Assembly: GCA_016188835.1 (NCBI GenBank)
Contig: JACPHB010000010.1
Coordinates: 1 to 54,194 of the forward strand
Direction: 5' to 3'
Source of the DNA: Parcubacteria group bacterium
GTDB taxonomy: Bacteria > Patescibacteriota > Minisyncoccia > UBA10092
DNA length: 54,194 nucleotides
The notes under the pieces are model-generated. The model was not told where the DNA came from and did not search any database. It saw nothing but the letters and a program-made list of their open reading frames with translations. Shown here one piece after another: positions 2,648-50,965 of the stretch; position 1 is the stretch's first letter; every line of letters begins with the position of its first letter. Position numbers and translations under genes: made by a program.

Positions 2648-4231
2648 ATGCCCAGCAAATATAACACTATCGCTTTAATTTTAATTATCACTATTGCGAT
2701 TTTTTTCAGGTTCTGGCAGTTTAATTCCATCCCACCCGGTTTATATCAAGACGAAGCGATGAATGGCGCCGACGCCTTGAGTTCTTTAGAAAGCGGAAAA
2801 CTTGGCGTTTTTTATACAAATAACAATGGCCGCGAAGGAATGATTGTTTGGTTAGATGCTTTAGCTATTAAAGTTTTTGGAACAGAACCATGGGTGTTAA
2901 GATTATTTCCCGCCCTTGCCGGAGTTTTGGCCGTTTTAGTGTTGTTTTTTCTGGCAAAAGAACTTTTTAGTGTTGAGATTGCCTTGGCTTCAAGCTTTTT
3001 TATGGCAACCAGTTTCTGGGCGGTAAATTTCAGCCGAATCGGTTTTAGAGCCGGACTTATGCTGCCAATCTTAATATGGTCTTTTTACTTCTTATATCGC
3101 GGCTTTAAATTATTGACATCCGATGTCGATAGCGACTATCGACATCGGATGTCAGATTTTATTACTGCTGGAATTTTATTCGGTTTGGGATTTTATACTT
3201 ATATTTCGTATAGATTCGCGCCGATTTTAGTCGCCGCATTTTTCATACCCTATCTTTTAAAACATCACATAAAAAACCTGTGGTTGGGATTTGCGATTTT
3301 CGCGATTACGGCTTTTATTGTCGCTTTACCGATAGGACTTTATTTTATTAATAACTCCGGCGACTTTTTCGGAAGAAGCAGGCAAGTATCTATTTTTTCA
3401 GCAGATAACCCCCTTAAGGCCTCTGTTTTAAGCATTGCGGCAACATTAGGAATGTTTAATATTATCGGAGACCTTAACTCACGGCATAATTTTGCCGGCT
3501 CTCCGCAATTGCTTTTGCCGGTGGGAATTTTATTTATTTTAGGGATTTTGATATGCGCCAAAAGAAGAAATTTGAGCGATAAGTTTTTATTGCTCTGGTT
3601 TTTTATATTTTTACTGCCAAATATTTTATCAACGGAGGGTAATCCCCACGCTTTGCGGGCTTTGGGAGCGATGCCTGCAGCAATGATTTTTGCCGGCATT
3701 GGATTAATTTGGCTTTATCAAAAAGTTAAAGGATATTTTGATAAAAAGATTAAAAATTTAGAACTTGAAGCTTACCGCGGCCAATTATTAAGAATTAAAA
3801 AAGAGGTCTTTATATTGCTATTCATTTTTTTATTGTTCATAAGCTTTTCTGAATTTAACAAATATTTTATTAAATGGGCTTCAAACATCCGCACCGCCGA
3901 TGCCTTTTCGCAAAGCCATGTTAAAATTGCCGACTACTTAAACCTATCGCCGAGAAACGTTAAAAAATATGTTATTTGGCCTGTGGATGATCGGCCAACA
4001 GAAAACGGCTTGCCGGTTTCCGCGCAAACCATATATTTCCTTACTTATGGAAAATCCGATATAAATTATGTGAAGTTCAATGAATCTGATAAAATAAATT
4101 TAGGGGCAAACGGTGCGATAATCGCTACGCTTAACTCCGATTTGGACTTGCTTCACGATTTAAATAAAAAATTTCCGAGCGGGAAAATTGAATTTATTTA
4201 TTTAAACACTCCGATTTTAATAGTTCCATAA
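2648..4231 (+). CDS. Polytopic membrane glycosyltransferase, GT39 / ArnT-PMT-like
   Basis: The 527-aa protein has many hydrophobic segments. The N-terminal loop PPGLYQDEAMNGADA carries the DE motif typical of ArnT/PMT-type lipid-carrier-dependent glycosyltransferases. Confidence 0.8.
   Translation: MPSKYNTIALILIITIAIFFRFWQFNSIPPGLYQDEAMNGADALSSLESGKLGVFYTNNNGREGMIVWLDALAIKVFGTEPWVLRLFPALAGVLAVLVLFFLAKELFSVEIALASSFFMATSFWAVNFSRIGFRAGLMLPILIWSFYFLYRGFKLLTSDVDSDYRHRMSDFITAGILFGLGFYTYISYRFAPILVAAFFIPYLLKHHIKNLWLGFAIFAITAFIVALPIGLYFINNSGDFFGRSRQVSIFSADNPLKASVLSIAATLGMFNIIGDLNSRHNFAGSPQLLLPVGILFILGILICAKRRNLSDKFLLLWFFIFLLPNILSTEGNPHALRALGAMPAAMIFAGIGLIWLYQKVKGYFDKKIKNLELEAYRGQLLRIKKEVFILLFIFLLFISFSEFNKYFIKWASNIRTADAFSQSHVKIADYLNLSPRNVKKYVIWPVDDRPTENGLPVSAQTIYFLTYGKSDINYVKFNESDKINLGANGAIIATLNSDLDLLHDLNKKFPSGKIEFIYLNTPILIVP
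3114..3154. repeat. Perfect 18-bp inverted repeat with a 5-nt loop inside the GT39 coding sequence
   Basis: The sequence is tgacatccgatgtcgata-gcgac-tatcgacatcggatgtca. It is in frame and encodes LTSDVDSDYRHRMSD. Confidence 0.9.
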
Positions 4232-6451: not shown

Positions 6452-6520
6452 AGAGTCCCCGCAGTAATATCTGTCAATTGCACGTTTAGAACCGATCGGT
6501 TGAAAATATGCAATTTAATT

Positions 6521-6548
6521 AAAAATCAGCTTAATAAAGCTGATTTTT
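6521..6548. terminator. Bidirectional hairpin terminator between convergent genes
   Basis: The sequence aaaaatcagctt-aata-aagctgattttt forms a 12-bp perfect stem. A-runs and T-runs flank it on both sides. Confidence 0.65.
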
Positions 6549-6550
6549 AA

Positions 6551-7339
6551 TTATTTTAATTTATAAAAAACGCGGCTCGGGATGCGCAAATCCACATATT
6601 CTAAATTACCGGTGTTTTTTACCGCTTCCTCTAAAATCGACAGTAAATTATTAACTGCCGCCGCCGGCTCCTGCTTTTCATCAAGATAAATTGACCAATT
6701 TTTATTTGTTACGGCTTCCAAATCAACAGAAAAATTTGGTTTTATTTTAAATTCTAAAATTTTAAATTTATTATTTTCTGAAATTTTGGCATTAAAAGCA
6801 AATATAAAATTGATTAAATTATCATCTAAAACTTTATCACCCAATAAAATATTGTTTTTTGACAAATCCTCTATTTTCAATATTAAACTGCCTTCGGTTT
6901 CGGGCGTCTTTGCAAATGCAACGCCGGTTTTATCGAAGTAATAGCAACCAGCGCTATTACACCAAATACCAATCTGAATTCTTTTATGAAAATCTATTGT
7001 AATTGTGTTAAATAATTTTTTTGTGATTGTTATGTCGGTTATAGACGGAAAAGCGGCGGCTAATTCCGATTTTAACCGTGATTTTGATAAAATTAATAAG
7101 TTTTCACCCAATCCGAACGAATTGATATTTGAGATTATACTTAGAATATTATCGCGATTTAAAACGGTATTATCGGAAAAATTTATATTTTGAATTTTTA
7201 AAAAAGATGATAAAAAAATTAACCAAAATACAGTTAGAATAATGGCTAAAAGAAAAAATAAAAAAAATAAAATTTTTATTTTTTTAATTTTTTCTTCTTT
7301 GCTTATTGTTTTGAATCTGTAATAGCGGCTTGATGGCAT
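6551..7339 (-). CDS. ftsQ: Cell division protein FtsQ/DivIB-like (TM + POTRA)
   Basis: The 262-aa protein has one N-terminal TM followed by a POTRA-like segment (KIQNINFSDNTVLNRDNILSII...ITITKKLFNTITIDFHKR). Confidence 0.65.
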   Translation of the reverse strand: MPSSRYYRFKTISKEEKIKKIKILFFLFFLLAIILTVFWLIFLSSFLKIQNINFSDNTVLNRDNILSIISNINSFGLGENLLILSKSRLKSELAAAFPSITDITITKKLFNTITIDFHKRIQIGIWCNSAGCYYFDKTGVAFAKTPETEGSLILKIEDLSKNNILLGDKVLDDNLINFIFAFNAKISENNKFKILEFKIKPNFSVDLEAVTNKNWSIYLDEKQEPAAAVNNLLSILEEAVKNTGNLEYVDLRIPSRVFYKLK

Positions 7340-14154: not shown

Positions 14155-14943
14155 TCATTTAAGAATTACAAAAACATTATCAAAATCCCGAAAATCGGCT
14201 AATAATTCAATATCCGCCGTATTAAATACTTGATTGTCTTCCGATTTGATCTGCTTAATTTTGCCTATAATAAGACCTCGCGGCCATAAGCCGTCTGTAC
14301 CGGAAGAAATGATTAAATCGCCTATTTCTGGTTTTTTATTTTTAGCGATAAGATCAAAAATGATATCCGAACCCAAGCCCCGCACCAATCCGGAAACATT
14401 CCCAGTGGAGTTAACTGCCGCAATCTTGCTGGAAACATCAATGATTGTTTTAACTTTGGAAGTATTATAATTTACATCGCTTATTTTTCCAACCATCACT
14501 TCTCCCTTAAAAATAACTGGCATGCCGACCGCAATGCCGTCACTGGCGCCCTTATCTATTAAAAAAGAACGGTTATTTTCAAAATCTCTCCCAATAATGT
14601 TCGCCAAGCTGATGTTCCAAAAATTTTTATCGGCCAAATTTAATTTTTCTTTTAAAAGCGCATTTTCTTCTTCTATCTGCGGTAATTTTGCCAATTTTCC
14701 GTATAATTCAAGATTTTCCGTTGCCAGTTTAATATTTGATTCTTTTAACTGTCTTATGCCCAAAAAAGCATTCTGCCAAAATACAAACTTATTTCCAATT
14801 TGACTAAAAATAATTTCAAACGGTCTTAATGTTACGGCAAGATAACTTTTAAATAATAAAACGGGACCGCTTTGGTTAAAAAAAATAATAACCACGCAAA
14901 GTAAAAACAAAAGAAAAAATGTAGCCAATTTCGATCTGGTCAT
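14155..14943 (-). CDS. mreC: Rod shape-determining protein MreC
   Basis: It has an N-terminal TM, a coiled coil and a beta-rich C-domain. It lies directly downstream of mreB. Confidence 0.8.
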   Translation of the reverse strand: MTRSKLATFFLLFLLCVVIIFFNQSGPVLLFKSYLAVTLRPFEIIFSQIGNKFVFWQNAFLGIRQLKESNIKLATENLELYGKLAKLPQIEEENALLKEKLNLADKNFWNISLANIIGRDFENNRSFLIDKGASDGIAVGMPVIFKGEVMVGKISDVNYNTSKVKTIIDVSSKIAAVNSTGNVSGLVRGLGSDIIFDLIAKNKKPEIGDLIISSGTDGLWPRGLIIGKIKQIKSEDNQVFNTADIELLADFRDFDNVFVILK

Positions 14944-14946
14944 ATA

Positions 14947-15981
14947 TTAACCGTTATTTATCAAAATTTCTCTTAAAGATTCAACATCTTCAAGAATAAT
15001 GCCGCAACCGCGAACCACTGCCGTTAAAGGATCTTCGGCAAGTTTTGTCGGAATTCCGGTGGTTTGGGTAACCATCTCTGAAAGACCGCGCAACATACTG
15101 CCGCCTCCAGCTAAAACGATTCCCCGCGTCATTAAATCGCTTAAGAGTTCCGGGGGCGTTTCTTCAATCACAGAACGAACTTCCGAAATAATAGCGTTAA
15201 CTGACGGAGCGATTGCTTCGCAAACTTCTACGTCGCTTATTAAAACTTCTTTGGGTAAACCGCTTATTAGATCGCGGCCTCTTACCATTGCCGTTAATTT
15301 TTCTTTTAAAGGCAATACCGACCCGATTAAAATTTTAATTTCTTCGGCGGTTTTTTCTCCCAAAAGGAGCTGAAATTCATCTCTGGCGTATTGAATAATA
15401 TCCTCATTCATTCTCTCGCCGGCAACTCTTAGATTTCGCGACACCACAATGCCTCCCAAAGATATTACTGCCACATCGGTAGTCCCGCCCCCGATGTCAA
15501 CAATCATGTTGCCAACGGCTTCAGAAATTGGAAGGCGAGCTCCGATAGCCGCCGCCATTGGCTCTTCCACAAGATAAACTTCTCTGGCGCCGGCATTTTT
15601 AGCCGCGTCTTCAACGGCTCGCCGTTCCACTTCGGTTACCCCTGAAGGAATGCCTATAACCACTCGCGGCCTCACTAAAAAACTATAAGAATCCTTGTGG
15701 ACCTTATTAAAAAAATATTTTAGCATTTGTTCGGTTACTTCAAAATCGGAAATAACCCCATCAATTAAAGGGCGGATGGCTACGATATGGCCCGGCGTCC
15801 GGCCAATCATTTTTTTGGCTTCCGCTCCGATGCTTAACACCTGATCGGTTTTTTTATTTATGGCCACTATAGAAGGCTCGTTAATGACGATACCTCGTCC
15901 CCTTACGTAAACCAAAGTGTTGGCCGTCCCCAAATCTATGCCTATATCTCTTGAAAATATTTTAAATAAACGATTTATCAT
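14947..15981 (-). CDS. mreB: Rod shape-determining protein MreB (actin-like ATPase)
   Basis: The motifs DLGTANTLVY, DIGGGTTDVAVISLGG and LAGGGSMLRGL are present. Confidence 0.95.
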   Translation of the reverse strand: MINRLFKIFSRDIGIDLGTANTLVYVRGRGIVINEPSIVAINKKTDQVLSIGAEAKKMIGRTPGHIVAIRPLIDGVISDFEVTEQMLKYFFNKVHKDSYSFLVRPRVVIGIPSGVTEVERRAVEDAAKNAGAREVYLVEEPMAAAIGARLPISEAVGNMIVDIGGGTTDVAVISLGGIVVSRNLRVAGERMNEDIIQYARDEFQLLLGEKTAEEIKILIGSVLPLKEKLTAMVRGRDLISGLPKEVLISDVEVCEAIAPSVNAIISEVRSVIEETPPELLSDLMTRGIVLAGGGSMLRGLSEMVTQTTGIPTKLAEDPLTAVVRGCGIILEDVESLREILINNG

Positions 15982-17215
15982 TTTTTATATTTGATATTTT
16001 AAGCAAATTGATTTTTCCGGTTTTTCTGTTTTTAATTTCAACAGAATTTTTTGATAATGTTTTTTCACTTATTACGAGCCGAGTCGGAATTCCGATTAAA
16101 TCAGCATCGGCAAATTTTTCTCCAGCCGACTTATCGTCGCGGTCATCGTATAACACTTCAATGCCTTTATCAAGACATGTTTTATATATTTTTTCCGCTT
16201 CTTTTTTTACAACCGGATTAGAATTTTTTAGTTCAACCAGGTGAAACTTATATGGCGCCGCGAATTCCGGCCAAATTATTCCATTATCATCATGAAGCGT
16301 CTCAACTATAGCTCCCATTGTCCTCCCCAGCCCAATCCCATATGAACCCATTATTACGGACTCTTTTTTTCCTTTCGAATTTAAAAAATTCAAATTAAAA
16401 GCATCCGAATATTTAGTTCCGAGCGGAAAAATATTGCCGACTTCGATCGCGTTTTCTTTTATGATTTTACCGGCGCATTTGGAGCATTTGCCACCGGCAT
16501 TTAATTTGGAAATTTCCTTATTTTCCGCATAACCGCATTTCAAACAAACAAAAACCACATCCTCTCCCACAGGGCACAGAACATGAAATTCATGGGTATT
16601 TTCGGCGGTATAATCGCCGCCTGCTGCCAATGTGTAAACTGTTTTCAGACCGCATCGCTTAAATATATTGAGATACGTTTTTTTGACTATTTCATAATAA
16701 TTTCTAAAATCGGATTCTGAAGCATGGAAACTGTATAAATCTTTCATTATGAATTCCTTGCCCCGCAATAATCCGGATTTGGCTCTTAGTTCGTTGCGAA
16801 ATTTTGTTTGAATTTGATAGGCGGCCAGAGGTAGATCTTTGTACGAATTTATGTATTTTGATGCAATAGCCGTTAAAACCTCTTCATGAGTCCAACCCAA
16901 AACAAAATTGGCTGATTTTTCTTTTTTCCCGCGCGCCTCAAAACCAATCCCCACATCCCATCTGCTGGTAGCATCTAAATATTTTTTTTCGACAAGCGCC
17001 GGCATAAACATTTCCTGGGCGCTGATGGCGTTCATTTCTTCGCGAATAATATCGGCAATTTTAGAAAGCACCCGCCACCCCAAAGGCAGATATGAATAAA
17101 CTCCAGCGGAGTTTTTATATATAAACCCCCCTCTTTCAAGTAGTTTCGCGTTTACACTTACTTCATCCTTAGGCGCCTCTCTTAAAGTTTTCCCAAAAAT
17201 TTGTGATTGCCGCAT
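15962..17215 (-). CDS. proS: Prolyl-tRNA synthetase, short form without the INS editing domain, with a Cys4 insertion
   Basis: The 417-aa protein has class II motifs and a CLKCGYAENKEISKLNAGGKCSKC insertion. Its 3' end overlaps the mreB start by 20 nt. Confidence 0.9.
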   Translation of the reverse strand: MRQSQIFGKTLREAPKDEVSVNAKLLERGGFIYKNSAGVYSYLPLGWRVLSKIADIIREEMNAISAQEMFMPALVEKKYLDATSRWDVGIGFEARGKKEKSANFVLGWTHEEVLTAIASKYINSYKDLPLAAYQIQTKFRNELRAKSGLLRGKEFIMKDLYSFHASESDFRNYYEIVKKTYLNIFKRCGLKTVYTLAAGGDYTAENTHEFHVLCPVGEDVVFVCLKCGYAENKEISKLNAGGKCSKCAGKIIKENAIEVGNIFPLGTKYSDAFNLNFLNSKGKKESVIMGSYGIGLGRTMGAIVETLHDDNGIIWPEFAAPYKFHLVELKNSNPVVKKEAEKIYKTCLDKGIEVLYDDRDDKSAGEKFADADLIGIPTRLVISEKTLSKNSVEIKNRKTGKINLLKISNIKNDKSFI

Positions 17216-17279: not shown

Positions 17280-17308
17280 TTGACAATAATAAATAATTGT
17301 TATATACT
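17280..17308 (+). promoter_or_regulatory. Sigma-70-like promoter TTGACA-N17-TATACT
   Basis: Read directly from the sequence. It lies about 50 nt upstream of the small ORF at 17359. Confidence 0.5.
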
Positions 17309-17358
17309 TATTATAATAAAAAAACAAAGTTCATTTTACAACTTATGAGGAGAACGCC

Positions 17359-17517
17359 ATGAAACACAAAACACTGGCAAAAAAACATATTCGACAAACC
17401 CGACTACTACCATCTTGTGATAATATGAGCTATAAAACTCCAAACCTAATTGAGGTCATTGCCCAAGAACTCAAACGAATCCGCGAGATTCTGCAGTATG
17501 GCAAACCACTCTCTTAA
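17359..17517 (+). CDS. Small hypothetical ORF (52 aa), below the ORF-track size cut-off
   Basis: The translation is MKHKTLAKKHIRQTRLLPSCDNMSYKTPNLIEVIAQELKRIREILQYGKPLS. It is preceded by a GAGGAG Shine-Dalgarno sequence about 6 nt upstream and followed by a hairpin plus T-run. Confidence 0.4.
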   Translation: MKHKTLAKKHIRQTRLLPSCDNMSYKTPNLIEVIAQELKRIREILQYGKPLS

Positions 17518-17561
17518 TAGCACAATAATTCAAAGGTTGTAATTTTATCATTTTTATTATA

Positions 17562-17598
17562 ATCTCGGAGTGAAATTATCATCCCGAGATATTTTTTT
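17562..17598 (+). terminator. Rho-independent terminator-like hairpin plus T7 run
   Basis: atctcgg pairs with ccgagat (7-bp stem, 15-nt loop), followed by atttttttac. Confidence 0.5.
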
Positions 17599-17647
17599 AC
17601 TGAATAAAAACCCTATATTCTAAAGTGTAACTTTTAAATCCTTTCTT

Positions 17648-17683
17648 GAACGCACAAAAATCCTATAGGCAGTTTGTGCGTTT
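17648..17683 (-). repeat. Copy A of the palindromic element GAACGCA..TGCCTATAGGA..TGCGTTC (inverted relative to B-D)
   Basis: The sequence is gaacgcacaaaaatcctataggcagtttgtgcgttt, with a 10-bp stem aacgcacaaa/tttgtgcgtt. Confidence 0.85.
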
Positions 17684-17718
17684 ATAGAAAGTATGATAAA
17701 ATATATAAAAACAATTAT

Positions 17719-18297
17719 ATGAAAAATGTAATTAAAAGCGAATCATTAACCGCGGATGTTTTACTTATAGCCGCCGCCGGGCCAATTATTTTAGCATCAT
17801 TATTCTTGCCCAACGCGCCCCTGATGTTAAAATCGTTAATTAAATGGCATAAAAATTGGGGTAAAATAAAGCGCCAGCGAATTTATGAGGCTATCAGGCG
17901 CCTTAATAAAAAAAGATTGATTGAATTAGAGCAAAAGGGTAACGATTTATATCTTAAAATTACCGAAAATGGTAAAAAGATAATAAAAAATTTTGATTAT
18001 GACAATATTGAATTACCCAATCATAAAAAATGGGATAAAAAATGGCGAATGATAATTTTTGATATCCCGGAGAAGAAAAATAAAGAGCGCCGCGCTCTTT
18101 CCGCAAAATTGAAAGATTTGGGTTTCTATCCCCTGCAAGAGAGTGTCTTTATTTATCCTTACGACTGCCAAGATGAAATAGATTTTATTTGCAGTTTCTT
18201 GTCCATTGATAATTATGTTAATTATTGTACTCTTGAAGCTTTGGATAAAAAAGAAGGCGATTTAAGAAAGTTTTTTGATTTATCTCTTAAACTCTAA
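17719..18297 (+). CDS. PaaX-like regulator: wHTH plus a Cas2-fold domain. The start is taken at the ATG at 17719; the track starts at a TTG at 17674.
   Basis: The wHTH-like segment is RQRIYEAIRRLNKKRLIELEQKGNDLYLKITENGKK. It is followed by WDKKWRMIIFDIPEKKNKERRALSAKLKDLGFYPLQESVFIYPYD, which matches the W..W..FDIPe..R..L..GF..Q.SV pattern of PaaX central/Cas2-like domains. Confidence 0.6.
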   Translation: MKNVIKSESLTADVLLIAAAGPIILASLFLPNAPLMLKSLIKWHKNWGKIKRQRIYEAIRRLNKKRLIELEQKGNDLYLKITENGKKIIKNFDYDNIELPNHKKWDKKWRMIIFDIPEKKNKERRALSAKLKDLGFYPLQESVFIYPYDCQDEIDFICSFLSIDNYVNYCTLEALDKKEGDLRKFFDLSLKL

Positions 18298-18301
18298 CTC
18301 T

Positions 18302-18336
18302 GAACGCATTTATTGCCTATAGGATTTTAATGCGTT
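18302..18336 (+). repeat. Copy B of the palindromic element
   Basis: The sequence is gaacgcatttattgcctataggattttaatgcgtt. It starts 5 nt after the stop of the PaaX-like gene. Confidence 0.85.
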
Positions 18337-18437
18337 TTAAAGTTAAAATTATTACATCAATTATGAAAAAATTAACGCATCTTTAATAAATCTCACCGCT
18401 CCGAAACAAACGTTTTCTAATCAATAGTTTGGAAATA

Positions 18438-18467
18438 TTGACAAATAAAACAACTTTGTGTTATTAT
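18438..18467 (+). promoter_or_regulatory. Promoter TTGACA-N18-(TGt)TATTAT
   Basis: Read directly from the sequence. It has an extended -10 TG and lies upstream of ORF 18535. Confidence 0.45.
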
Positions 18468-18495
18468 AAATATTATGATATTGGAACGTTCTTTA

Positions 18496-18517
18496 ATCTA
18501 ACTACAATCTAACTACA
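18496..18517 (+). repeat. Tandem direct repeat 2 x 11 nt (atctaactaca) in the 5' leader
   Basis: Read directly from the sequence. It lies 17 nt upstream of the ATG at 18535. Confidence 0.8.
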
Positions 18518-18534
18518 GAAATGGAGCAAGAGCC

Positions 18535-18897
18535 ATGCAAGCAAATATCATGAACATTTCAGAGCTTCAGAAAATTCAAAAAAAAGCAAAAATAAGCATG
18601 CAAAATATCAAGACCGATGAGGAACAGGAAAGGAAGCAAAAAATTGAAAAAAAGGCCAAATGGTATTTAGAAGGATTTAATGAGACATTAAAGCAAGTAG
18701 CAATTAAGGCAGCTAATGAAGGAAAGAACGAGGCAGTTGTTATGCAAGTTGGGCCATTTTGGGTAGCCGGATGGTTTGATGAAGTCACCAAAAAAGCCGC
18801 TGAAATGGCGGTTGTATATGTTAAAAAGAAATATGACGGTTTTAATTTCTGGCTTGATGATGGTTTTATTTGGGCATCTTGGCCAGAATCTTCATAA
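18535..18897 (+). CDS. Hypothetical protein (120 aa)
   Basis: The ORF has a GGAG Shine-Dalgarno sequence (atggagcaagagccATG), its own promoter and a downstream hairpin. No motif is recognised. Confidence 0.55.
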   Translation: MQANIMNISELQKIQKKAKISMQNIKTDEEQERKQKIEKKAKWYLEGFNETLKQVAIKAANEGKNEAVVMQVGPFWVAGWFDEVTKKAAEMAVVYVKKKYDGFNFWLDDGFIWASWPESS

Positions 18898-18915
18898 TTT
18901 TAGAATATATTTGCG

Positions 18916-18950
18916 TCCCTACCGAAATATTGGTGGGGATTTAATTTTAC
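18916..18950 (+). terminator. Hairpin plus T-rich tail
   Basis: tccctacc pairs with ggtgggga (8 bp with one G-U, 8-nt loop), followed by tttaatttta. Confidence 0.45.
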
Positions 18951-18983
18951 ACTAGCTCAAAATCTAAAAATAAGGTCTGCCTT

Positions 18984-19021
18984 GGACACAAAGATTACCT
19001 ATAGGAGATTTTTGCGTTCAG
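18984..19021 (+). repeat. Copy C (degenerate left arm) of the palindromic element
   Basis: The sequence is ggacacaaagattacctataggagatttttgcgttcag. Confidence 0.7.
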
Positions 19022-19126
19022 TAAATTTACGATTAATAAATCTTTGTTATTATCTTTCGTAAATCAGCAACGATCGTTGGAATATTACGAAAAATAAAAA
19101 TACGAAAATGAAAAATTAGAAAATTC

Positions 19127-19154
19127 TAATAATTTAGCTATAGCTAAATTATTA
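19127..19154. terminator. Perfect 14+14 AT-rich palindrome downstream of rseP
   Basis: The sequence is taataatttagcta-tagctaaattatta, lying 39 nt after the rseP stop. Confidence 0.4.
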
Positions 19155-19192
19155 TACAGTTGATTTAACCTCAACTGGTTGAACCTCAATAG

Positions 19193-20245
19193 TTATAGAA
19201 GTTTTAAGATATCTCTGTAGGTTATCAATGCAACGAGTACCAAGAGCAAGACGATGCCAACAGAATGAATGGCGTTTTCAATCTTGGGGTTGACTTTTGA
19301 GCCCTTGATTTTTTCTATAGCTAAAAATAACAGCCGACCGCCGTCTAAAGCAGGAAAAGGAATTAAATTTAAAACCGCGAGATTAAGAGAAATCAAAGCC
19401 ACTAATTGAAGCAGATAAACAAAACCGAGAGCTGTCGCCTGGCCGGCCAATACCGCAATTCCCACCGGACCGGCAACCTCCTGAGGCACTTTTCCGGAAA
19501 CCAGAAGATTTTTAATTAACCCAAAAAATCCCTTAATTATTTCCCAAGTTATAATAAACGACGATTTTATCCCAAGCCAAACGCTTTGATACCATGGATA
19601 AGAAACAAGGCCGGTTTTAGCAAGAGCTATGCCTAAAGCTCCTTCTCCTTCCGGAGGACTTACTCTAGGGACGGTTTTAATTTCTAAATTGCCTTGACCT
19701 CTTTTAATTTTTAAATTTATTTCTTGGCCCTTGTTTTTACTGATGAAATCCTGAAAAATTAAAATTTCGGAAAAATTTTCTATAGAATCGCCGAGTTTTA
19801 AACCGGCTTTTTCTGCCGGAGAATTATGGTTGATGGCAATAATTTGAATTTGAACATTTTTAGCGAGTGTTTCATTTTCTTCGCTTACAACTTGCGGCAA
19901 GCCGATATAAAATCCGATGATTAAGAGCATGGCGCCGAGTGCGAAATTCATCATAACTCCAGCCGCGGTGATTAAACTTCTAATAACAATGGATTTTGAA
20001 GAAAAACTTTTAGAATTATTAGTTTCGCTGCCGTCTTCGCCTAATATTTTAACAAAGCCGCCCAAGGGCAAAAGATTTATTGAATAAATTGTTTCGCCGG
20101 ATTTCCAGCTAAAAATTCTTGGCGGAAAGCCAAAACCGAATTCTTCCACAGTTAAGCCGCTTTTTTTGGCAACAATAAAATGGCCAAATTCGTGAACCAA
20201 AACTAAAATTCCCAAAATTAAAATAAAAACCAAAATGGTAATCAT
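19193..20245 (-). CDS. rseP: RIP metalloprotease RseP (site-2 protease, M50)
   Basis: It has HEFGHF, a PDZ-like middle region and NLIPFPALDGGRL. Confidence 0.9.
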   Translation of the reverse strand: MITILVFILILGILVLVHEFGHFIVAKKSGLTVEEFGFGFPPRIFSWKSGETIYSINLLPLGGFVKILGEDGSETNNSKSFSSKSIVIRSLITAAGVMMNFALGAMLLIIGFYIGLPQVVSEENETLAKNVQIQIIAINHNSPAEKAGLKLGDSIENFSEILIFQDFISKNKGQEINLKIKRGQGNLEIKTVPRVSPPEGEGALGIALAKTGLVSYPWYQSVWLGIKSSFIITWEIIKGFFGLIKNLLVSGKVPQEVAGPVGIAVLAGQATALGFVYLLQLVALISLNLAVLNLIPFPALDGGRLLFLAIEKIKGSKVNPKIENAIHSVGIVLLLVLVALITYRDILKLL

Positions 20246-20805: not shown

Positions 20806-20902
20806 GCCAATAAAACAAATTTTTTTAAAATTCCTTAGCCCCATTCGCCTTCGGCGAACGGCTCGCCCCCGCCTAGAATTTTAAAAAATTTGTTTTATTG
20901 GC
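20806..20902 (+). repeat. Long hairpin element, copy 1: a 27/28-bp AT-rich stem around a conserved GC-rich core
   Basis: The arms are gccaataaaacaaatttttttaaaattc and gaattttaaaaaatttgttttattggc. The core is cttagccccattcgccttcggcgaacggctcgcccccgccta. The right arm encodes the last 9 codons of holB. Confidence 0.9.
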
Positions 20903-22693: not shown

Positions 22694-22792
22694 AAAAAAT
22701 GAAAATAAAATTTTAAAATTGTCATAGCCCCACCCCGCTTCGCGGGGCGGCACGACCCCGCCTACAATTTTAAAATTTCATTTTCATTTTTT
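22694..22792 (+). repeat. Long hairpin element, copy 2
   Basis: The arms are aaaaaatgaaaataaaattttaaaattgt and acaattttaaaatttcattttcatttttt (29 bp, 1 mismatch). The core is catagccccaccccgcttcgcggggcggcacgaccccgcct. Confidence 0.9.
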
Positions 22793-41745: not shown

Positions 41746-43452
41746 TTATTTTCCAATTGTCTCTTCCAAAATCTTTTTTAGGCCTTCGGTATCAACGGTT
41801 TTACGCTGCCTGCCCTGCATAGCTTTTGGAGCTGGCGATTCTTGAGTTCGAGGCCTCAACTGCGATAAATGCACTGGTTTAACGGGTGGGCGCCTGCCTG
41901 CCATCGCCTGCGGCTCAGGTCGCTGGCGGGCAGAAGTTTTAGAAAAACAATCCTTACAGTAAACCGGCCTCGTCGGATCAGGTTTAAAAGGAACGGTTGT
42001 ATTTTTCCCGCAATTCGCGCAAACGGCGCTGAACATATTTTTTTTATCATCAAAAGCGCCACGCTCTCCGCTAGAGGGTCCGCGCGAAGATGTATTGTAT
42101 GACGGTAAATCGTAAGCGTCTCTTTGAGACGAACTTTGTGCTTCTGCCTGTAGAACACCTGTAGCAATAGATATGGTGCTTTCTACTTCGGCTTTTGGCG
42201 TGCCATAAGTAATTCTCGAGTACTCTATAATTTCATCGGCATAAGAAATTTCCGGTTTGGAATATGGCGGTAAAGTGATCGCCGAAAACGGCCTTGACGG
42301 AACGCCATCAATCAAAAGACGCAGATAAATATTATAATTAGGCAGATTAAGCAAATCTTGAGCCGTAATGTTAGGGCTAAATTGCTTTTCTTCCAAAAAT
42401 TCAACGTCTTCGCCGCCGGCTCTGAAAGCAATAAATGTGCCGACATTGCCAAAAATCGCGTCTTTTACCTTTACATTTTGGTCGTGAACCAACTGGCCGA
42501 TGTATTGATTGGCAATTGTAAGATCAAGGCGGAATTTTCTGGCTTCCGACAAAATGTCGGCAAAACTATCAGTAACAAAAGTTTGAAATTCGTCAACGTA
42601 AAGATAAAAATCTTTACGGTCTTCTTCCAAAATATCAACCCTACTCATGGCAGCAAGTTGGATTTTGGTGATAAGCATACCACCCAAGAGTTTTGTATTG
42701 TCTTCTCCGAGCCGCCCCTTGCTAAGGTTCATTATTACAATTTTTCCTTCATCCATGGCCTGCCGGAAATTAAACGAAGAAGTCGGCTGACCGATGATGT
42801 TTCTGATGATGGTTGCCGAACTGAACTGGCCGATTTTATTTTGAATGGCCGCCGTCGCTTCCTGTTCGTATTTTTGCTGATAAGCGGCATATTCCTGCGT
42901 CCAAAACGCTTTAATAACTGGATCAGATATTTGGTTCACGATATTTTTTCTAAATGCCTTATCGGAAAACATCCGGTTAACGCCAAGCAAAGTGGAACCT
43001 GGAACTTCTAATAGAGCTAAAATAGTGTTGTTTAAAATATATTCCATTCGAGCGCTCCAAACATCGGGCCAGATTTTTTTAAATACTCCCATAAGACCAG
43101 AGGCCACCAAGTGGCGCGCTTTAGCGTCTATGGTTTCTATGGCGTTAAAAGCTATCGGAAATTCCATATCGGCCGGATTGAAATAAATAACGTCTTTTAT
43201 CCGGTTTTCCGGAATATAATGAAGCAACCTCTCAGCCATTTCACCGTGAGGATCAACAAACCCCATGCCGCGGCCAGCCAAAATATCGGAAATCATCATA
43301 TTCATTTGCAAAGTGGTCTTGCCGGTGCCGGTCTGCCCGATAATGTACATATGGCGACGGCGATCGTCGGTTTTAATGCCGAACTTTTTCCGTTCGTTAC
43401 GGAAAGTCGTTTCGGCAAAAAATGTTATTTCGTTTTTATTTTCGTTATTCAT
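41746..43452 (-). CDS. VirD4/TraG/TraD-like P-loop ATPase with a C-terminal CxxC-x17-CxxC zinc ribbon
   Basis: It has Walker A IIGQTGTGKT, Walker B FYLYVDEFQTF and ARKFRLDLTIANQYIGQL. The tail contains CANCGKNTTVPFKPDPTRPVYCKDC. Confidence 0.8.
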   Translation of the reverse strand: MNNENKNEITFFAETTFRNERKKFGIKTDDRRRHMYIIGQTGTGKTTLQMNMMISDILAGRGMGFVDPHGEMAERLLHYIPENRIKDVIYFNPADMEFPIAFNAIETIDAKARHLVASGLMGVFKKIWPDVWSARMEYILNNTILALLEVPGSTLLGVNRMFSDKAFRKNIVNQISDPVIKAFWTQEYAAYQQKYEQEATAAIQNKIGQFSSATIIRNIIGQPTSSFNFRQAMDEGKIVIMNLSKGRLGEDNTKLLGGMLITKIQLAAMSRVDILEEDRKDFYLYVDEFQTFVTDSFADILSEARKFRLDLTIANQYIGQLVHDQNVKVKDAIFGNVGTFIAFRAGGEDVEFLEEKQFSPNITAQDLLNLPNYNIYLRLLIDGVPSRPFSAITLPPYSKPEISYADEIIEYSRITYGTPKAEVESTISIATGVLQAEAQSSSQRDAYDLPSYNTSSRGPSSGERGAFDDKKNMFSAVCANCGKNTTVPFKPDPTRPVYCKDCFSKTSARQRPEPQAMAGRRPPVKPVHLSQLRPRTQESPAPKAMQGRQRKTVDTEGLKKILEETIGK

Positions 43453-43465
43453 ATTTATGTTATGT

Positions 43466-43563
43466 GATTACAAAAATAATAAAAATAAAATTCTAGGTGG
43501 GGGCGAGCCGTTCGCCGTAGGCGAATGGGGCTAAGGAATTTTATTTTTATTATTTTTGTAATC
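43466..43563 (-). repeat. Long hairpin element, copy 3 (core inverted relative to copies 1 and 2)
   Basis: Perfect 28-bp arms (gattacaaaaataataaaaataaaattc and gaattttatttttattatttttgtaatc) flank the core taggtgggggcgagccgttcgccgtaggcgaatggggctaag. The element fills the gap between the two genes. Confidence 0.9.
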
Positions 43564-43566
43564 ATT

Positions 43567-44814
43567 TTATCCTATTGGCAATGATACCGGCGGCTCCGCT
43601 TTTTTGGACTCAACGCGGCGCATGGTCGGCGTTTCAACCGTTAAAATCGGATAATGATAAATAGTCGCCAATTCTTCAATATTTAAAATAAAATCTTTTT
43701 TCTTCGGCCACTTCCGATTGGCATAACGCTCAATAAAACTTTGTTTTCTTAAAAACTCTTTCCTTTTTTTAAAAGGCGGATCGGCAGAAGTTCCCGCTTC
43801 GCTGTTTGATTTGAAGGCGTTCATATTGACCGTGTTGAACTGTTTGAAAGCGCCATTTATTGCCGCCATATTGGCGCGGCTAAAAATATCGCTTCTGGCA
43901 ATATAAGCAAAACGGATGCTTACCCTAAAAGCCAATTTTGCCATTTTATTTTCAATTGCCTCAATCAAGGCCTTTTCTCCCGATGTAAGATTGGCAATTG
44001 ACGCCTTACTTTCTTCCTTTTTCTTCTCTCCCCAAATGGGATAAATCAAAATGGCTTTTATAAGATTTATTATGAATTCGTCTATCGGCCCCAAAGCTCT
44101 GTCAAGCCAGCTTTCTTTGGTTGCGGTTTTTTTCCCCATCAGCTTGTTTATGAATTCCTGGCCTCTTTCTTTCCATTCTTTTTCGACAGTCGGTTTCATT
44201 AAATATTGAATTAAAATATTTTCTCCCGCCTTAAGTTTTGAAAGAATTTCAAGAAATGAAGCCATCGGGTCAACGCGCCTTTCTTCTTCTTTTTCTTCAA
44301 AAAAAGGATAGGTTCTGATGGGGAAGAAATCATCTTTTTCCAAAATAAGCTCCGCACCGCTTATGTCGTATGTTTTGCTCGGCGTTTTTTTAGCAATTGG
44401 GCCGGCGTAATCCAATACTTCGGAAATTTCCGCGTCTGGATATTGAGCGTGAATCTGGGCCTCAACCAGAGTCCGAAATTGTTCCGGCGTTCTGATAAAA
44501 AAATATACCGCCCCGTCAATGCCGGCGATTTCAAAACTGAACCATTCCTGCACCTTGCCTTTCCAGTATTTATCAATAAATTTGATTTTGGTAATAATGC
44601 CGTGAAGCCCAGAAAATATCTGCTCCATTGATTTCGGGCTTTTTTCAATGTCTCGAGAAACCTTAATCTCAAGAAAAGTCCATTTCAGCGCTTTTATGGC
44701 CGTGGTTTTTAAGTGCCTTACCCACAGTTCTATAAAAACCGCGATTAAAACTACCGGCAGCCAAAGCCACCAGAGCCCCAAAAAAACATTAATAATCGCA
44801 TAAAAAATACCCAT
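43567..44814 (-). CDS. Membrane-anchored partner protein of the ATPase. It is homologous to the N-terminal ~390 aa of the fused gene at 1..2403.
   Basis: It has an N-terminal TM (IINVFLGLWWLWLPVVLIAVFI). The C-terminal ELATIYHYPILTVETPTMRRVESKKAEPPVSLP matches ELTSIFHFPIIKIETPKVRFVKAKAAAPPAILP in the fused gene. Confidence 0.75.
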   Translation of the reverse strand: MGIFYAIINVFLGLWWLWLPVVLIAVFIELWVRHLKTTAIKALKWTFLEIKVSRDIEKSPKSMEQIFSGLHGIITKIKFIDKYWKGKVQEWFSFEIAGIDGAVYFFIRTPEQFRTLVEAQIHAQYPDAEISEVLDYAGPIAKKTPSKTYDISGAELILEKDDFFPIRTYPFFEEKEEERRVDPMASFLEILSKLKAGENILIQYLMKPTVEKEWKERGQEFINKLMGKKTATKESWLDRALGPIDEFIINLIKAILIYPIWGEKKKEESKASIANLTSGEKALIEAIENKMAKLAFRVSIRFAYIARSDIFSRANMAAINGAFKQFNTVNMNAFKSNSEAGTSADPPFKKRKEFLRKQSFIERYANRKWPKKKDFILNIEELATIYHYPILTVETPTMRRVESKKAEPPVSLPIG

Positions 44815-44957: not shown

Positions 44958-44995
44958 GAACGCATTTACTGCCTATAGGATATATATGCGTTCAG
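44958..44995 (+). repeat. Copy D of the palindromic element GAACGCA..TGCCTATAGGA..TGCGTTC
   Basis: The sequence is gaacgcatttactgcctataggatatatatgcgttcag. The first 24 nt match copy B at 23 of 24 positions. Confidence 0.85.
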
Positions 44996-45097
44996 ATAAA
45001 AAACAAAAATAATTATAAACTTAACGATAATAATAAACTTACAATACAATTACAGATTTTTAACCGATCGGAAAAATATCCGTAATTTATAAAACCC

Positions 45098-45731: not shown

Positions 45732-45944
45732 TTAAGTGTTGGTCCATTTGTTATCGGAAATGCCAGCTTGTTTTAAAATTTCAGAAACAAGATGTTTTGA
45801 TATATCGCCCCTGTGAGGATTTGGAACTATAATTTTAAGATTCTTATTTTTCATTATTAAATGACGGCCGCCGGGATAAGGGCCGTCAAATTCCAAGCGA
45901 TGCAGTTTTTGGACTAATTTCTTCCAAGATATATTTTTAGGCAT
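45732..45944 (-). CDS. hicA: HicA-family mRNA interferase toxin
   Basis: The 70-aa protein contains GGRHLIMKN...IVPNPHRGDISKHLVSEILKQAGI, matching the HicA/YcfA pattern. Confidence 0.8.
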   Translation of the reverse strand: MPKNISWKKLVQKLHRLEFDGPYPGGRHLIMKNKNLKIIVPNPHRGDISKHLVSEILKQAGISDNKWTNT

Positions 45945-46182
45945 GTCTAACTGCTTGTTTGCGACTTACCTCAATCTTAAGTTCCGGTATTGAATCCCCG
46001 TCTTTAATCTTAAACAAGAGCCAATCCTCTAAGGCACTTCTTAGTTCCTCGCGGCAATCCTCAAGATTTTTTGTGTTTGCCCACACGCCTTTAAGGCCGG
46101 GAATTTTGCCAAAATAAGTGCCATCTTTAAGAATTTCATAAATGGCTTCTTTTAATTTTTTCGCGATATATTCACTAAGCAT
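45937..46182 (-). CDS. hicB: HicB-like antitoxin (N-terminal HicB fold only, no obvious DNA-binding domain)
   Basis: It contains YFGKIPGLKGVWANTKNLEDCREELRSALEDWL. It overlaps hicA by 8 nt. Confidence 0.75.
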   Translation of the reverse strand: MLSEYIAKKLKEAIYEILKDGTYFGKIPGLKGVWANTKNLEDCREELRSALEDWLLFKIKDGDSIPELKIEVSRKQAVRHA

Positions 46183-50604: not shown

Positions 50605-50647
50605 TTTAATTTATAATTTATTTTGTTTGTTTTGCGTGCTATAGCAT

Positions 50648-50965
50648 TCATAACAAACAAATTGATTTTATTTCATTTAAAATATCTTGAGGAATAGGGT
50701 TATGAATAGGGCTTTTGCCGGGATAGCGCCAAGCGGTAATTATTTTTATTTTTTCTTGTTTTTTAATCGACTGATATATAGTCCAAATTTCAGAATAATT
50801 TTTCCCACCAGCTGGTTGCATAGCCGCAATCATTTTAGGCACAATTGCTTCTTCCGTCCGCGCCGGATAACGGATTATTCTTTTAATTCTCTGGGGCGAC
50901 AGGCCGTAATGCCGCATTTTATAGATTGAATGCTTGGTCCAGAAGTATTTTGCGCCGCTTATCAT
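50648..50965 (-). CDS. Hypothetical protein, possibly a DUF4258-like toxin fold (tentative)
   Basis: The WTKHSIYKMRHYGLSPQRIKRII pattern is present. It overlaps the upstream nuclease gene by 4 nt. Confidence 0.4.
   Translation of the reverse strand: MISGAKYFWTKHSIYKMRHYGLSPQRIKRIIRYPARTEEAIVPKMIAAMQPAGGKNYSEIWTIYQSIKKQEKIKIITAWRYPGKSPIHNPIPQDILNEIKSICLL

Follow-up and report, generated by a model that had tools for sequence, protein, structure and literature searches.

Introduction

PaaX, a regulator described in Escherichia coli and Pseudomonas, combines an N-terminal winged helix with a Cas2-like dimerization domain and a C-terminal, ligand-responsive domain. The E. coli protein binds TGATTC-N27-GAATCA and represses its own promoter through steric hindrance (PMC9493321), occluding RNA polymerase. 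Here we analyze a stretch of 54,194 nucleotides from a Parcubacteria group bacterium (contig JACPHB010000010.1 of assembly GCA_016188835.1; the whole stretch is referred to as the window), in which the gene for a 192-residue PaaX-family protein stands between two inverted copies of a 36-bp palindrome. The protein shares with PaaX the winged helix and the Cas2-like domain, and the palindrome resembles the PaaX operator in its inverted half-sites, about three helical turns apart (39 bp overall in the operator, 36–40 bp here). Unlike PaaX, the protein lacks the C-terminal domain and any association with a paa operon, its gene is bracketed on both sides by the palindrome, and the palindromes have a conserved palindromic core, are dispersed in the manner of a repeat and lie mostly away from promoters.

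That dispersal recalls a second group of systems, the repetitive extragenic palindromes (REPs), their hairpin-forming doublets (REPINs) and bacterial interspersed mosaic elements (BIMEs), together with the REP-associated tyrosine transposases (RAYTs). As in these systems, the copies are imperfect extragenic palindromes of 20–40 bp, enriched at the 3' ends of genes and present in many dispersed copies, which stand alone, in doublets or in mosaics that combine several types of unit; inverted cognate repeats lie on both sides of a single-copy gene, each paralog has a repeat family of its own, and inheritance is mostly vertical, with polymorphism in presence and absence. In contrast, the partner is a winged helix–Cas2-fold relative of PaaX and not a transposase of the histidine-hydrophobic-histidine (HUH) Y1 type related to the TnpA of IS200/IS605; the consensus TGAACGCA...TGCGTTCA carries a central CCTATAGG core in place of a GTAG/CGTC tag; copy number seems lower, about one per 10–20 kb here; and the host belongs to the Candidate Phyla Radiation (CPR, Patescibacteria; an Azambacteria-like lineage, to judge from synteny and protein names). 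The element thus works like a REP–RAYT pair but has neither the HUH transposase nor the tag that define that class. A third point of comparison is the cyanobacterial HIP1 (highly iterated palindrome 1, GCGATCGC); palindromes of some paralogs described below have exactly GCGATCGC or another CGATCG-type octamer as their core, over-represented in intergenic DNA. HIP1, however, is a bare octamer that is present inside genes too, whereas the octamer here is the center of a ~38-bp palindrome tied to a specific adjacent protein.

We favor, as probable, the reading that the palindrome is a protein-recognized site cognate to the adjacent PaaX-family protein, that its upstream copy is an autoregulatory operator, and that the family has spread in a manner resembling REPs and BIMEs.

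The palindrome in the window

The element is described by the 36-nt pattern GAACGCA-N5-T[GA]CCTATAGGA-N6-TGCGTTC. With up to three mismatches it occurs at exactly four sites of the window, which is AT-rich (about 38% GC) and derives from a groundwater community, and at none in 100 dinucleotide-preserving shuffles. Copy A (17648–17683, minus strand, AAACGCACAAACTGCCTATAGGATTTTTGTGCGTTC) and copy B (18302–18337, plus strand, GAACGCATTTATTGCCTATAGGATTTTAATGCGTTT) are inverted with respect to each other; copy C (18984–19019, plus strand, GGACACAAAGATTACCTATAGGAGATTTTTGCGTTC) has three mismatches and a degenerate left arm; and copy D (44958–44993, plus strand) is a perfect match and the only site of the exact gapped pattern. 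The 11-mer at the center is found five times in the window, against 0.47 occurrences expected. The central core CCTATAGG is a perfect 8-bp palindrome from which each arm is separated by 7 nt in symmetric spacing, and the sole asymmetry is in the dinucleotides next to the core, T[GA] to its left and AT to its right.

These results bear on a first-pass annotation of this DNA, made from the letters alone. The four copies that it reported are where it placed them, with the sequences that it gave, and its observation of 23 identities among the 24 leading positions of B and D is correct; the pairing into stems of 8–10 bp that it described is also found, the stems measuring 8–12 bp. Its claim of an asymmetric centre was mistaken, since that centre is the palindromic core just described. 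Copy A does lie just upstream of the PaaX-like gene, ending 35 nt before the ATG, but copy B begins 4 nt, and not 5 nt, past the stop codon. Copy C follows the terminator of the next gene, ORF120, as had been noted, at a distance of 43 nt from the terminator-like hairpin.

Folding of the four copies gives z-scores of −3 to −7, the minus strand of copy C excepted, and pairing continues past the 36 bp at copies A and B without this being general. At pair 6:27 the four copies have C-G, T-A, A-T and T-A. The copies differ from one another at most spacer positions, while their orthologs at locus L037 (loci retrieved from other genomes carry L numbers) differ at only 3 of 36; to judge from this divergence, they are old within the window's lineage.

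The PaaX-like protein

The gene beside copies A and B (17719–18297, plus strand) encodes 192 amino acids that form a PadR-like winged helix (about residues 10–95) and a Cas2 fold (about residues 105–185). Pfam gives PaaX_M at 9e-22, Cas2 at 5e-5 and nothing else. The TIGR02277 model of PaaX aligns to residues 39–174 with an E-value of 6e-11 and 42.3 bits, far from its cutoff of 264.55; at this score, and without the C-terminal effector domain, the protein is not a full-length PaaX equivalog. It is also shorter (192 residues against 305 in the 8a39 chain), and its gene neighbors encode ProS and RseP, with no paa genes. The combination of a winged helix with a central Cas2-like domain that characterizes the PaaX family is nevertheless present. 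Of two AlphaFold2 models, we used the one built from a diverse alignment (predicted local distance difference test, pLDDT, 85) and set aside that from a shallow alignment (pLDDT 47). The best PDB match of this model in Foldseek is E. coli PaaX (8a39, E 3.5e-7), followed by PadR–DNA complexes, the PaaX-like proteins 3kfw and 3l09, and Cas2 proteins.

The geometry of the window palindrome, 7-N22-7, is compatible with that of the PaaX operator, 6-N27-6. Among 103 sequences with 29–83% identity to the window protein, the Cas2-like aspartate of the FDIPE motif and the WD.KWR motif are conserved in at least 90%. The family is large: clustering at 50% identity yields 3356 clusters at E<=1e-3 and 1829 at E<=1e-10. 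In IMG/VR, the element pattern has no match, and the protein profile finds one weak relative, which lacks palindromes; from these scans no phage link of the palindrome or of the PaaX-like module is seen.

Within the gene, the stretch encoding WDKKWR..FDIPE (18025–18080) has a unitig depth of 4–9 times the genome baseline in 4 of 4 source runs and is shared by many contigs that diverge on both sides of it. This suggests that the ~55-nt stretch is common, with at least 90% identity, to many paralogs or relatives in the community.

Pairing of gene and palindrome across genomes

How general is the association of this protein with a palindrome? All of the homologs with more than 70% identity (about 25, from groundwater metagenomes, at loci selected by the repeat and having flanking sequence) are bracketed, with the upstream palindrome 17–60 bp before the start codon and the downstream one 0–60 bp after the stop codon. 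Where the asymmetric core flanks allow orientation to be read, the upstream copy is on the minus strand in 11 of 13 cases and the downstream copy on the plus strand in 13 of 13. As a sign of terminal inverted repeats this regularity was downgraded, because the oriented cases come from one ortholog group and the interior of the palindrome can flip. Counted from the side of the repeat, 23 distinct pairs of copies lie 150–3500 bp apart, and 20 of them bracket a PaaX-like gene (in 19 the gene is called between the copies; at L019 the gene call overlaps one copy). The remaining pairs enclose ORF120 in the window, a HicAB block at L037, and three ordinary genes including proS and mreB. The first-pass claim that the palindrome brackets each gene of a small island thus holds locally, but in general it is the PaaX-like gene that is bracketed.

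Two further tests are unbiased by the repeat search, one using paralogs that happened to lie in the loci and the other using representatives found through protein similarity. All eight distant paralogs (36–44% identity) incidental to the fetched loci are bracketed, each by a palindrome of its own, with CCGATCGG, ACGATCGT, GCGATCGC or GCTATAGC as core. So are all eight representatives chosen by protein similarity alone (31–44% identity), whose cores include TCTATAGA, GCAATTGC, GCTCGAGC, ACTATAGT and CTGCATATGCAG. Altogether, 16 of 16 distant relatives are bracketed by their own ~38-bp palindrome with a different core, CGATCG-type and others. The GCTATAGC-type palindrome, for instance, brackets a distant PaaX-like paralog at L124/L108, and two close paralogs at L043 are surrounded by different subtypes, CCGCA..TGCGG and ACGCAATT..AATTGCGT, respectively. 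Given that every member stands between copies of a ~38-bp palindrome of its own, the flanks of a gene in this family should directly reveal the DNA that its product targets.

Together, the bracketing, the PaaX match and the operator geometry bear out the earlier suggestion that the element is no mere hairpin and has a link to the neighboring protein with its winged helix and Cas2 fold. In the open-access literature on PaaX with Cas2, palindromic repeats or Patescibacteria, we found this pairing described nowhere.

Dispersed copies

A scan of one genome per species located the element in two metagenome-assembled genomes of the CPR, and a looser, symmetric pattern matched at least 120 loci in metagenomes, nearly all of them from groundwater; the copy statistics given here are from these listed loci. 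A match at L002 (Euzebyella) was discarded, being at chance level for the pattern. Intergenic DNA holds 174 of 200 copies, even though a crude call of open reading frames (ORFs) puts the coding share at about 87% (p about 1e-124). Across 116 distinct copies, 80.6% of arm cells are paired, compared with 70.7% after shuffling (none of 500 shuffles reaches the observed value) and 31–45% when the partner is slid. Pairing extends beyond the fixed bases and is maintained by compensatory changes, and the covariation score of the arms is 0.285 versus 0.139. G-T and A-C mismatches are balanced (60 and 50), and copies face either way at random with respect to the upstream mRNA (16 plus, 20 minus), from which we infer that the constraint on the palindrome acts on DNA and not on a transcript.

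Copies away from the PaaX-like gene are enriched in convergent spacers (21 of 58, versus 71 of 463; p=3e-4); copies not beside the gene show no enrichment in divergent ones. By core, the palindromes fall into families of 168 (CCTATAGG), 41 (ACGATCGT), 35 (CCGATCGG) and 16 (GCTATAGC) copies, with at most 8 copies in each of the others, and for 47 of the 168 CCTATAGG copies a palindrome from a different family lies no more than 150 nt away. Tight doublets consist of a symmetric and an asymmetric subtype joined by a 7-nt linker, with a conserved flank of ~45 nt; they recur at many distinct loci, in one case twice on one contig.

Orthologous spacers differ in the presence of the element: genes that overlap by 4 bp in one genome are separated in another by a 107-bp spacer containing it, and the spacer at 14943–14947 of the window corresponds to orthologous spacers of 294–404 bp that hold one or two copies. 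Upstream of the gene, L001, L103 and L049 have tandem arrays of two to three copies with a period of 94–106 bp, L103 and L049 being identical except for an additional 106-bp unit in L103. L004 retains colinear flanks around its counterpart of copy D but has the palindrome interior in the opposite orientation, the flip-flop expected of hairpin-forming DNA. Neither target-site duplications nor clean insertion boundaries could be defined in genome pairs that differ in presence, because these pairs are too diverged or differ by composite units. A generic REP-like repeat had been named beforehand as the finding that would speak against a protein-recognized site; the dispersed copies do behave like REPs and BIMEs, yet they are specific to one protein.

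Positions of the module and variation around it

In syntenic genomes, the module of gene and palindromes occupies three chromosomal positions (proS/rseP, murA-like/PEGA and yceG../ligA). Genomes that lack the module at one of these positions have a precisely empty site there, and in the protein tree the position-2 sequences branch from within the position-1 group. The syntenic L001 lacks an 852-bp segment of the window (18341–19192) that includes ORF120 and copy C as well as two palindromes of other families, and its equivalent of copy B abuts rseP; the left edge of this indel is exactly at the end of copy B, and its right edge is 173 bp past copy C. ORF120 has a single homolog, P0122 (62% identity), which lies upstream of the PaaX module in L134. 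The idea that ORF120 is a traveling cassette was set aside as informative but anecdotal, given this one homolog. L134 also has a PaaX-like gene truncated to 154 amino acids by a deletion (in the region 3290–3320) that starts at about codon 150 and ends at the left edge of the CCTATAGG core in the downstream palindrome; the upstream copies at this locus are degenerate or interrupted.

Upstream of the module, 17280–17600 in the window is a hypervariable slot, as is the corresponding region of L001, L018, L021, L128, L132, L133 and L134. Delimited by the module and by a conserved promoter toward proS, it holds unrelated ORFs of 52 (window), 63, 81, 140, 154, 173 and 121+145 amino acids; L001 has instead a G+C-rich, non-coding stretch of ~110 nt, L132 also has an rve integrase gene, and each variant carries its own terminator. 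Among the 27 window proteins scanned against Pfam, including that of every gene adjacent to a copy, there is no integrase or recombinase. The indels and the variation of the slot show a hotspot but do not demonstrate site-specific recombination at the palindrome. For the recombination or cassette-boundary site that the first-pass annotation offered as an option, there is circumstantial support in the ORF120/copy C indel relative to L001 and in L134, where the ORF120 homolog is found across the module, but no recombinase is among the 27 window proteins scanned.

The promoters of small accessory ORFs (L019, L080, L031 and L128; 18400–18445 and 17255–17285 in the window) have a common upstream context, roughly AAATTTCCCAATC.GAAAA.ATTGACA. 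Because this context recurs, the promoter-bearing segments may themselves be repeated units.

A HicA/HicB-like toxin–antitoxin pair and two small ORFs form one block at 45732–46182 of the window and at 6543–8020 of L037. In L037, a close relative, the four-gene block is flanked by direct repeats of ~140 bp that contain the palindrome; in L004, which is more distant, a different, NYN-like gene occupies the position.

Model and alternatives

We propose the following model for the operator function of the palindrome. The PaaX-like protein would dimerize through its Cas2-fold domain and place one winged helix on each outer arm (GAACGCA and TGCGTTC), 29 bp apart from center to center, as PaaX does on TGATTC-N27-GAATCA, with specificity set by the 8-bp core CCTATAGG plus the arms. 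Copy A spans the expected −35 position of the gene's own promoter; an extended −10-like element, TGATAAAAT, can be read by eye downstream of it at 17694–17702, and the right arm of copy A contains TTGTGC, 17 nt upstream of TAAAAT (likewise by eye, and under the threshold of the promoter scan). Because copy A occupies the −35 position, protein bound there would be expected to repress its own gene. Copy B, after the stop codon, would close the unit and could be either a boundary or an additional operator that permits looping. The site would then have spread through intergenic DNA (C, D and the many copies in relatives), mostly to the 3' ends of genes, and the dispersed copies, with their doublets and mosaics involving two other families, would probably be protein-bound, hairpin-prone boundary elements.

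Several points weigh against this model. The overlap of copy A with a promoter is weak, the −35-like hexamer matching at 3 of 6 positions and scoring below threshold in the scan, and no RNA sequencing run was found to contain the locus. A dimer on double-stranded DNA leaves unexplained the covariation of spacer positions that are not themselves conserved, as well as the preference for convergent spacers, which are promoterless. The consistent orientation of the brackets may merely reflect common ancestry within one ortholog group. Near-identical composites of 80–130 bp are present at different loci of one genome (L019), and these need a copying mechanism beyond a plain regulon. Four loci selected by protein, ~70 kb in total, have no copies except those bracketing the gene, so that copy number per genome is probably modest, in the tens rather than the hundreds.

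An alternative is a partnership of the REP–RAYT type with a different enzyme, in which the Cas2-fold domain would act as a nuclease that nicks the hairpin or cruciform, the gene would mobilize or maintain its palindromes, and the brackets would be the ends of the element. The architecture of a single-copy gene between inverted cognate palindromes, with one family per paralog and extragenic doublets, corresponds to that of RAYTs; the conserved FDIPE aspartate, the three module positions with their empty sites and nested proteins, the near-identical composites at two loci of one contig, the 106-bp unit gained between otherwise identical sequences and the L134 deletion that terminates at the downstream palindrome core all agree with such a partnership. 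In PaaX, however, the Cas2 fold is a dimerization domain, and nuclease activity is not known in the family; definable target-site duplications and insertion boundaries are lacking, the copies are old, copy number seems modest, and duplication with subsequent loss could equally well explain the different module positions. We regard this partnership as unlikely, yet deserving serious consideration. A site that bounds cassettes, at which small promoter-bearing gene units are inserted or excised as at an integron attC or an attachment site, seems to us improbable. The indel that begins exactly at the end of copy B, the ORF120 homolog across the module in L134, the L037 HicAB block between direct repeats and the unrelated small ORFs of the upstream slot, with the rve integrase gene in L132, fit this idea, and attC sites are likewise imperfect palindromes bounding small variable genes, as the direct copies around ORF120 and the HicAB block do here. 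But the scanned window proteins include no integrase or recombinase, the indel continues on its right side for 173 bp after copy C, the units carry their own promoters and terminators, just 2 of 23 distinct copy pairs bracket cargo other than the PaaX-like gene, and homologous recombination between repeats would give identical patterns. Unlike integrons, moreover, the locus has no IntI, no R''-L''/L'-R' organization and no GTTRRRY core.

A function at the RNA level, whether in termination, in the stabilization of mRNA 3' ends or in processing, perhaps with the Cas2-like (RNase-like) domain as the cutting or binding partner, would account for the stable predicted hairpins and for the many copies just past stop codons and between convergent genes. 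The absence of a strand bias between wobble and A-C mismatches, the random orientation to the upstream mRNA and the opposite orientations of the upstream and downstream bracketing copies speak against an RNA element; the stem is followed by no T-run (the consensus 3' flank is TCA[AG]), a terminator scan of the region called none of copies A, B and C, and Rfam at gathering score has no hit to L001, L103 or L049 and, in the window, hits only three tRNAs. We consider such a function very improbable. Scarcely any weight attaches to a relic or precursor of a CRISPR system (clustered regularly interspaced short palindromic repeats), an idea that the evidence largely refutes. Its attraction is a 36-bp palindromic repeat beside a protein with a Cas2 fold and weak Cas2 profile matches, along with the small upstream arrays of L001, L103 and L049. 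These arrays, however, grow by tandem duplication of repeat and "spacer" together, so that the spacers are not unique, and they have at most three tandem copies; no cas1 or other cas or effector gene is nearby, PaaX_M matches far better than Cas2 (9e-22 versus 5e-5), the Cas2 fold is fused to a winged helix, and the repeats stand on both sides of the gene and are scattered genome-wide.

The reading of the palindrome as the cognate site of the PaaX-like protein has consequences beyond this locus. The genomes of CPR/Patescibacteria are small and poorly understood, with proteins annotated as "PaaX family regulator" or "Cas2" that have no assigned role; a family of 3356 clusters would gain a concrete, testable partner, and the intergenic palindromes of these genomes would appear as organized families with a dedicated protein, similar to REP–RAYT systems but built on an unrelated fold. 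If the protein only binds, the family offers a compact model of how regulator–operator specificity diversifies. If it also cuts or copies hairpins, the repeat system, whether mobile or domesticated, would belong to a new class and would connect the Cas2 fold with palindromic repeats outside CRISPR. It is conceivable, though we think it decidedly doubtful, that the ~190-residue winged helix–Cas2-fold proteins as a whole (more than 1800 clusters at 50% identity, mostly CPR) recognize and propagate or maintain private ~38-bp palindromes, with the Cas2 fold acting as a nuclease on hairpins, independently of HUH enzymes. Such guardians, each a free-living Cas2-fold protein coupled to palindromic repeats of ~36 bp, would bear on the origin of the association between Cas2 and repeats in CRISPR.

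Neighboring features of the window

The island is flanked by proS on the left (15962–17215, minus strand) and rseP on the right (19193–20245, minus strand). The slot upstream of the module starts with a strong promoter (17280–17308, plus strand), followed by the ORF of 52 amino acids (17359–17517, plus strand) and a terminator-like hairpin (17562–17590). Between copies B and C, the ORF120 unit (18438–18940) comprises a strong promoter matching 11 of 12 consensus positions (18438–18467, plus strand), the ORF itself (18535–18897, plus strand) and its terminator-like hairpin (18915–18940, plus strand).

The ~38-bp palindromes of the window, each built on an 8-bp core that is itself palindromic, fall into three discrete families with 4, 3 and 2 copies; all of these are intergenic, and shuffled sequences yield 0–1. 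Apart from copies A–D, the second family is found 36 nt past copy C (19055–19092, core ACGATCGT), in a spacer between convergent genes (6477–6514, core CCGATCGG) and 55 nt from copy D, with which it forms a composite (45049–45086, core CCGATCGG). The third, with core GCTATAGC, is found to the right of the palindrome at 19055–19092 (19122–19159) and at 50623–50660. The second-family palindrome of 19055–19092 adjoins a CCTATAGG copy in L007 as well, the spacer orthologous to that of 6477–6514 holds a CCTATAGG copy or a doublet instead in other genomes, and the composite formed by copy D and 45049–45086 recurs in L090/L081, although not at the same locus. In the source samples, unitig depth is 3–5 times the baseline over 18988–19161, and copy B is found in another context too.

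Copy D lies in the spacer upstream of a gene for a 415-residue protein (43567–44814, minus strand), and its orthologs in L037 and L004 are likewise upstream of this gene and its partner, which encodes a VirD4/TraG-like ATPase. In the window the pair spans 41746–44814: the ATPase, a coupling protein with a C-terminal treble-clef zinc finger, adjoins the 415-residue membrane protein, for which Pfam gives no match.

A further repeat family, AAAATTCCTTAGCCCCATTCGCCTTCGGCGAACGGCTCGCCCCCGCCTAGAATTTT, occurs at 20822–20895, 22703–22792 and 43486–43543 (reverse) of the window and at 6677–6750 of L005, in spacers of minus-strand operons and with no match in Rfam. It forms a G+C-rich hairpin with a TTCG loop, in which TTCGCC/GGCGAA and CCCCGC/GCGGGG are compensatory changes between copies, and it may function as a terminator or as a structured small RNA.

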